From the NCBI RefSeq assembly GCF_041886205.1, contig NZ_CP169029.1: 64,000 bases of DNA; one strand, written 5' to 3'. Made by a program: the position numbers and the translations under genes. Below, one piece after another: positions 12,795 to 12,857 of the stretch. Under the pieces are notes generated by a model. The model had not been told where the DNA came from and did not search any database. It saw nothing but the letters and a program-made list of their open reading frames with translations. This DNA is from Escherichia coli (GTDB lineage Bacteria; Pseudomonadota; Gammaproteobacteria; Enterobacterales; Enterobacteriaceae). Every line of letters begins with the position of its first letter. Position 1 is the first letter of the stretch.

Positions 12795-12857
12795 ATATGA
12801 ACAGCGGCACTGGTCAGGATGAACGGCTTACGGCAGAATATGAACAGATATGAACAG
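12795..12857 (-). promoter_or_regulatory. torCAD promoter tor boxes (TorR binding decamers)
   Basis: ATATGAACAG (reverse complement of CTGTTCATAT) at 12795-12804, 12838-12847, 12848-12857; degenerate copy GGATGAACGG at 12817-12826. Confidence 0.85.

Follow-up and report, generated by a model that had tools for sequence, protein, structure and literature searches.

The 64,000-nt stretch of the Escherichia coli chromosome analysed here (contig NZ_CP169029.1; the whole stretch is referred to as the window) carries, at positions 12795-12857, four decamers in the divergent control region between torR and torCAD, the genes for respiration with trimethylamine N-oxide (TMAO) and for its regulation. 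These decamers are almost certainly tor boxes, forming the operator array through which the response regulator TorR controls the divergent torR-torCAD region. We make this assignment because the decamers have the same sequences as the published tor boxes (PMC9239176), the boxes and the sequence between them are identical to those of E. coli K-12, the spacing agrees and the cognate TorR is encoded beside them. The operator is already known and is present here in its canonical form; it is an ordinary finding, with nothing new in the element itself.

Direct reading and a pattern search placed ATATGAACAG on the + strand at 12795-12804, 12838-12847 and 12848-12857, and direct reading gave a single copy of GGATGAACGG at 12817-12826. 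The + strand at 12795-12857 thus consists of ATATGAACAG cggcactggtca GGATGAACGG cttacggcaga ATATGAACAG ATATGAACAG. A repeat finder independently recovered a four-copy direct-repeat family, ATGAAC[A/G]G[C/A], with start-to-start distances of 22, 21 and 10 bp, and found no inverted repeats among the four decamers. An earlier note on this DNA had described three exact copies and one degenerate copy, two of them adjacent at 12838-12857, between torC and torR; the coordinates, the copy number and the degenerate fourth copy all agree with that description, and the boxes lie inside the 129-bp divergent spacer (12747-12875) that separates the torC ATG (12746, - strand) from the torR ATG (12876, + strand).

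On the torC strand the order is CTGTTCATAT CTGTTCATAT (box1 and box2), 11 nt, CCGTTCATCC (box3), 12 nt and CTGTTCATAT (box4), with all four boxes in the same orientation, pointing toward torC. Box1 (12848-12857) is the distal half of the tandem pair and box2 (12838-12847) abuts it with a 10-bp period; both correspond to the published boxes of the same number and are identical in K-12. Box3 (12817-12826), which corresponds to the published box3, is degenerate, matching the consensus CTGTTCATAT at 7/10 positions, and starts 21 bp from box2. The promoter-proximal box4 (12795-12804) starts 22 bp from box3 and ends 8 bp upstream of the predicted torC -10. Because the start-to-start spacing is 10/21/22 bp, all four boxes are predicted to lie on one face of the helix.

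The clustering of these decamers is well beyond chance. Exact copies of ATATGAACAG number three on both strands of the window, all of them at 12795-12857, against an expectation of 0.13 copies per window from dinucleotide-preserving shuffles; the maximum in 100 shuffles was one copy, and no shuffle contained three. Of the 11 occurrences of the core ATGAACRG in the window, four fall inside the 63-bp box region. Outside the array, decamers with a single mismatch to the tor box were not significantly enriched (4 extra hits versus 3.2 expected). Two repeats flanking the array were considered and rejected as tor boxes: a pseudo-box, TTGCTCATTA, beside box4 (12785-12794; 6/10 matches; repeat-finder family D1) and an AATGAG[C/T]AAA repeat beside box1 (12858-12867; family D3). 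They were set aside because about 0.5 chance matches are expected by calculation in 129 bp at 6/8 core matches and because the position is not box-like in other genera, where at the site of TTGCTCATTA it is the -10 block ATAAGATC that is conserved.

Boxes 1 to 4 of E. coli K-12 were reportedly characterised by Simon et al. in 1995 and Ansaldi et al. in 2000. The abstract of the later study is said to describe box1-box2 as binding TorR with high affinity and covering the torR start, box3 and box4 as low-affinity sites filled cooperatively by phosphorylated TorR (TorR-P), and the two sites as needing closeness and the same helical face. In the published nomenclature box1, box2 and box4 are CTGTTCATAT and box3 is CCGTTCATCC (7/10), and box3 alone gave no TorR gel shift in Salmonella (PMC9239176). 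Genomic SELEX (systematic evolution of ligands by exponential enrichment) with TorR yielded a single peak in the K-12 genome, at the torR/torCAD spacer, which was seen with or without acetyl phosphate and was stronger with it (PMC5934670). Passages of PMC9436347 and PMC5294996 that cite Ansaldi 2000 describe the boxes as bound in vivo by both phosphorylated and unphosphorylated TorR, and a passage of PMC9436347 citing the same work describes negative autoregulation of torR. The identification of this arrangement as the known TorR operator, which the earlier note had put forward, is therefore borne out by the box sequences and by the published TorR binding at this spacer.

The torR-torCAD region of K-12 shares with the window the decamers, their order and orientation, the 10/21/22-bp spacing, the 129-bp spacer and the flanking genes. 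From the torR ATG through all boxes, the spacers, the -10 and the first 13 leader bases, the window is identical to K-12 MG1655, and a comparison of box spacing with the characterised torC promoter, proposed in the earlier note as a check, revealed no mismatch. A 201-bp alignment to MG1655 contained only two differences, which lie beyond the boxes, on their downstream side, in the torC 5' leader: position 12760 is T in the window and C in K-12, and position 12751 is C in the window and T in K-12. The window allele is the majority form among E. coli, with 3491 genomes at 99% identity to it or higher, and a 901-bp query around the boxes matched 5417 of 5426 complete E. coli genomes, several at 100% identity. 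Salmonella enterica has the same sequences for boxes 1, 2 and 4 and for box3 (PMC9239176). In S. arizonae and S. diarizonae the box offsets of 0/10/31/53 are identical to those of the window, while the spacer and leader sequences of Salmonella differ from it.

For a wider comparison, the box1-box2 20-mer was sought in one genome of each species, which returned 20 loci. In 15 of these, from Escherichia, Salmonella, Edwardsiella, Providencia and Grimontia, the 20-mer stands immediately upstream of a torC homologue. Where the retrieved sequence extends far enough, torR is the neighbour, adjacent in Enterobacterales and about 220 bp off in Grimontia marina. From genus to genus, almost no similarity is left in the torR and torC leaders. 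In 14 of the 15 loci, nevertheless, the GTTCA core of box3 keeps offset 31 and box4 keeps offset 53, and the gap between box4 and a -10-like hexamer (TAAGAT in Enterobacterales, TACTAT in Grimontia) is 8 bp in all 15. The sole spacing variant, Providencia vermicola, has an extra degenerate unit, TTATTCACAT (7/10), after box2 and offsets of 0/10/20/41/63; this unit adds 10 bp, and the helical phase of all boxes is preserved.

The remaining five loci, all from metagenome-assembled genomes, have no tor genes and were treated as unrelated or chance matches. One of the five, from an uncultured Lachnospiraceae bacterium, contains the run CTGTTCATAT CTGTTCATAT CTGTTCATCT aGGCATTCATC (2278-2320), four tor-box-like units with a 10-11-bp period. 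The run sits between a glutaminyl-tRNA synthetase gene and a gene of 565 aa read as AAA-ATPase-like, with no tor genes nearby, and may serve as an operator for some unrelated regulator of the OmpR family or be a product of chance.

The anatomy of the torC promoter can be drawn by combining these comparisons with published work. The RNA polymerase -10 site of torC overlaps TTGCTnnnnAAGAT and has been placed within TTGCTCATTAAGAT (PMC10845959); with the invariance of ATAAGATC across Enterobacterales, this points to TAAGAT at 12781-12786 (- strand) as the probable -10 hexamer. The '+48' of PMC10845959 lies about 20 bp into the torC coding region and implies a leader of about 28 nt, and this position together with a 7-nt distance to TAAGAT suggests the A at 12774 (- strand) as the torC start, with a 28-nt leader. 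Relative to this predicted +1, boxes 1 to 4 would occupy -83..-74, -73..-64, -52..-43 and -30..-21. The -35 position reads TGCCGC, in which no -35 is recognisable. The promoter would accordingly be expected, by analogy, to depend on an activator, with box4, 8 bp from the -10, acting like the pho box of PhoB.

The tor box CTGTTCATAT is similar to the pho-box half-site CTGTCATA, and the likeness extends to the mode of activation. In both systems a winged-helix response regulator uses direct repeats that recur about every 10-11 bp at a promoter that lacks a -35, the proximal repeat standing at a fixed short distance (8 bp in tor) upstream of the -10. A promoter without a -35 and with its proximal repeat at a fixed distance from the -10 is the arrangement of the OmpR/PhoB-type class, and it is the arrangement found here with a -10 that was assigned partly by inference. 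The tor array differs from a pho box in that it comprises one tight tandem pair and two single boxes, each two turns apart, and in that its distal pair would also mediate repression of the divergently transcribed regulator gene by its own product. We use the comparison as a working analogy and not as a statement of membership.

For torR, a promoter is predicted at 12811-12839 on the + strand, with a -35 TGGTCA (12811-12816), a 17-bp spacer containing box3 and a -10 CAGAAT (12834-12839). Conservation of the box3-box4 spacer (12805-12816), TGACCAGTG, is seen in Enterobacterales, in which about 20 bp separate box1 from the torR ATG, and not in Grimontia, in which the torR start is about 220 bp away. 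This distribution agrees with its assignment as the torR -35 (TGGTCA, + strand). The pattern T(G/A)GTCA-17 bp-CA(G/A)(A/T)AT is kept in Escherichia, Salmonella, Edwardsiella and Providencia, and not in Grimontia. The predicted start would fall at about 12846-12847, where box2 meets box1, and autorepression could then be explained by occlusion of the promoter or start site. A block, TGCCGTA, in the box2-box3 spacer (12827-12837) is also conserved across Enterobacterales; it lies within the spacer of the predicted torR promoter and remains unexplained. TorR abundance is reported to be very low (PMC9436347), and weak torR hexamers would fit such an abundance.

These elements can be joined into a mechanism for which the sequence, spacing, conservation and intact genes come from the present analysis, and TorR binding, the affinity hierarchy and autoregulation from the literature. 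TorR, an OmpR/PhoB-type winged-helix protein, would bind the direct repeats head-to-tail. The abutting box1-box2 pair, with its 10-bp period, would act as the high-affinity site and be occupied by TorR whether or not it is phosphorylated; lying over the torR start region, it would hold torR transcription down in a TMAO-independent negative autoregulation. When TMAO is sensed by TorT/TorS and TorR becomes phosphorylated, TorR-P would also fill the weak box3 and box4, which would lie on the same face of the DNA as box1-box2, two helical turns apart. The hexamers, the transcription starts and the recruitment of polymerase are steps that we infer: since box4 ends 8 bp upstream of the -10 in a promoter with no usable -35, TorR-P bound near TAAGAT may substitute for the -35 contact and recruit RNA polymerase, leading to torCAD transcription.

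Several caveats apply to the assignment of the decamers to TorR and to parts of this mechanism. The cross-species loci were selected by an exact match to the box1-box2 20-mer, which makes the conservation of box1 and box2 circular and leaves box3, box4, the spacing and the -10 as the independent observations in that set. The binding experiments were performed on other strains; the box DNA of the window is identical to that of K-12. The affinity hierarchy and the placement of box1-box2 over the torR start depend on secondary citations. Both promoter hexamer assignments appear to be weak matches, since scanning 12650-12950 for sigma-70 consensus promoters and terminators gave no hit; conservation and the literature guided the choice of hexamers instead, and the predicted torR promoter, at 8/12 to consensus, falls below the threshold of the scanner. 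With the predicted +1, moreover, box4 (-30..-21) would be slightly nearer the -10 than a classical pho box. Nothing was found that contradicts the reading of the array as a TorR operator.

Other explanations for the decamers were also considered. The array might serve another member of the OmpR family, for instance ArcA or PhoB, with half-sites similar to CTGTTCATAT; besides the likeness to the pho-box half-site noted above, the next-best NCBIfam match of TorR is ArcA. ArcA-like motifs do overlap TorR sites, but the torCAD promoter is bound by TorR-P and not by ArcA-P or FNR (PMC10845959). The torR/torC spacer is, in addition, the single SELEX target of TorR (PMC5934670), and the boxes co-occur with torR/torC across genera, which makes an operator for a different regulator highly improbable. 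Published work is also reported to show TMAO induction lost when torR is deleted and unchanged when arcA or phoB is deleted. We give equally little credence to the idea that the decamers are a functionless product of replication slippage, a short tandem duplication in an intergenic region. Slippage or recombination between boxes does occur: about 90 genomes carry a five-box allele, and one has lost 43 bp from box to box (see below). Box3 and box4, however, are dispersed and not in tandem, their offsets and cores are conserved in five genera whose leaders have diverged, and published mutational and binding data speak for function; for K-12, a TorR footprint and a loss of function when boxes are mutated are reported.

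The GAAC/GTTC cores could instead act mainly as recognition sites for DNA phosphorothioation (Dnd) that modulates the promoter, as in Salmonella Cerro 87. Each box contains GTTC/GAAC, and in a dnd-positive Salmonella the tor boxes are contested by DndCDE and TorR, of which TorR binds them more tightly (PMC9239176). Phosphorothioation is then an overlay on TorR control in dnd-positive strains rather than an alternative to it, and no dnd genes are present among the annotated genes of a collinear strain over the 64-kb span; there is scarcely any likelihood that this explains the decamers here. TorR binding thus remains the preferred explanation for the array.

The number of boxes varies within E. 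coli. The window carries the majority four-box allele, whereas about 88-90 of the 5417 complete genomes (about 1.7%) have a 139-bp spacer with three tandem CTGTTCATAT (positions 319-348 of the 97-3250 locus) and five boxes in total. The five-box genomes come from unrelated lineages, including the O26 Shiga toxin-producing E. coli 97-3250, UTI89, NU14 and UM146, and what they have gained is a single 10-bp repeat, no more and no less. We know of no published description of this allele. The spacing variants found, in Providencia vermicola and in the five-box E. coli, each add one whole 10-bp unit, so that the helical phase is kept. In one genome, OkiPb01695 (3490-3511), 43 bp are missing between box2 and box4, and two boxes are left abutting the torC -10; box3 and the predicted torR promoter are removed, and torR and torC are still annotated as intact. 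Judged from the sequence, such a deletion could have arisen by recombination of box2 with box4, which are identical.

It is conceivable, though rather unlikely, that the four boxes are only the recognisable members of a continuous array of tunable length with a period of about 10.5 bp, in which six or seven TorR protomer slots would lie at offsets 0, 10, 21, 31, 42, 53 (63). The conserved spacers, TGCCGTA and TGACCAGTG, would then be degenerate TorR contacts or a site for a second factor. If this were true, the five-box, two-box and Providencia vermicola variants would change torR autorepression or TMAO inducibility.

The tor genes around the array are intact. The window has the gene run rutD ... 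torDAC / torR / torT / torS ... zapC, and in the annotation of the collinear strain torC, torR, torT and torS coincide exactly with open reading frames of the window. On the - strand, torC (11574-12746), the first gene of torCAD, encodes a pentahaem cytochrome of 390 aa (NCBIfam equivalog NF011606, 884 bits versus a cut-off of 455); torA (9028-11574) the TMAO reductase of 848 aa (NF011682, 1616 bits versus 909); and torD (8432-9031) the TorA chaperone of 199 aa (NF003442, 262 bits versus 132). On the + strand, torR (12876-13568) encodes an OmpR/PhoB-family response regulator of 230 aa (equivalog NF008034, 428.7 bits versus 275), in which the Pfam domains Response_reg and Trans_reg_C give the OmpR/PhoB architecture. 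The periplasmic TMAO-binding protein TorT (342 aa; 13541-14569, - strand) and the unorthodox sensor kinase TorS (914 aa; 14652-17396, + strand) also score above their NCBIfam equivalog cut-offs. All six proteins (TorC/A/D/R/T/S) are full length and 98.5-100% identical to those of K-12. The earlier note had taken the boxes as confirmation that the TMAO respiratory system is complete. Completeness itself holds, judged by the intact genes, because all six are full length, close to K-12 and above the equivalog cut-offs; the argument from the boxes alone was a non sequitur, as they are no proof of it.

The torC 5' leader has been proposed to form part of a riboswitch responsive to bis-molybdopterin guanine dinucleotide/molybdenum cofactor (bis-MGD/Moco), and the Salmonella promoter gave no support for this E. 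coli-specific Moco-dependent regulation (PMC10845959). Both differences from K-12 (12751 and 12760) fall inside the 28-nt torC leader (12747-12774). No Rfam family matched the torC leader at gathering thresholds, and a 75-nt fold was no more stable than shuffles for either allele (z = +1.4 and +1.0). A riboswitch in the torC leader thus finds no support from these computations and is not disproved by them.

Further features of the window lie outside the tor region. An IS3 insertion element of about 1256 bp (20328-21583, - strand), with visible terminal inverted repeats and open reading frames orfA (102 aa; 21219-21527) and orfB (288 aa; 20356-21222), interrupts gfcA, which opens the group 4 capsule operon, only a few codons beyond the gfcA ATG at 20310. 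The insertion is absent from the collinear strain LHM10-1, and K-12 has a different insertion element (IS1D) nearby. An Rfam match to the cspA thermoregulator (159 bits; 19103-19525, - strand) covers cspG and its leader and is an expected cold-shock element of the 5' untranslated region. A tRNA-Ser(UGA) gene is located at 39456-39543.

The comparative footprint shows a box layout and a box4-to-(-10) distance that are fixed across five genera. Given the intact canonical element and the six genes, we predict that TMAO-inducible respiration in this strain follows the same regulation as in K-12. Natural E. coli differ in their number of boxes by whole helical turns, and this variation provides ready alleles for asking how the number of operators affects autorepression and induction.
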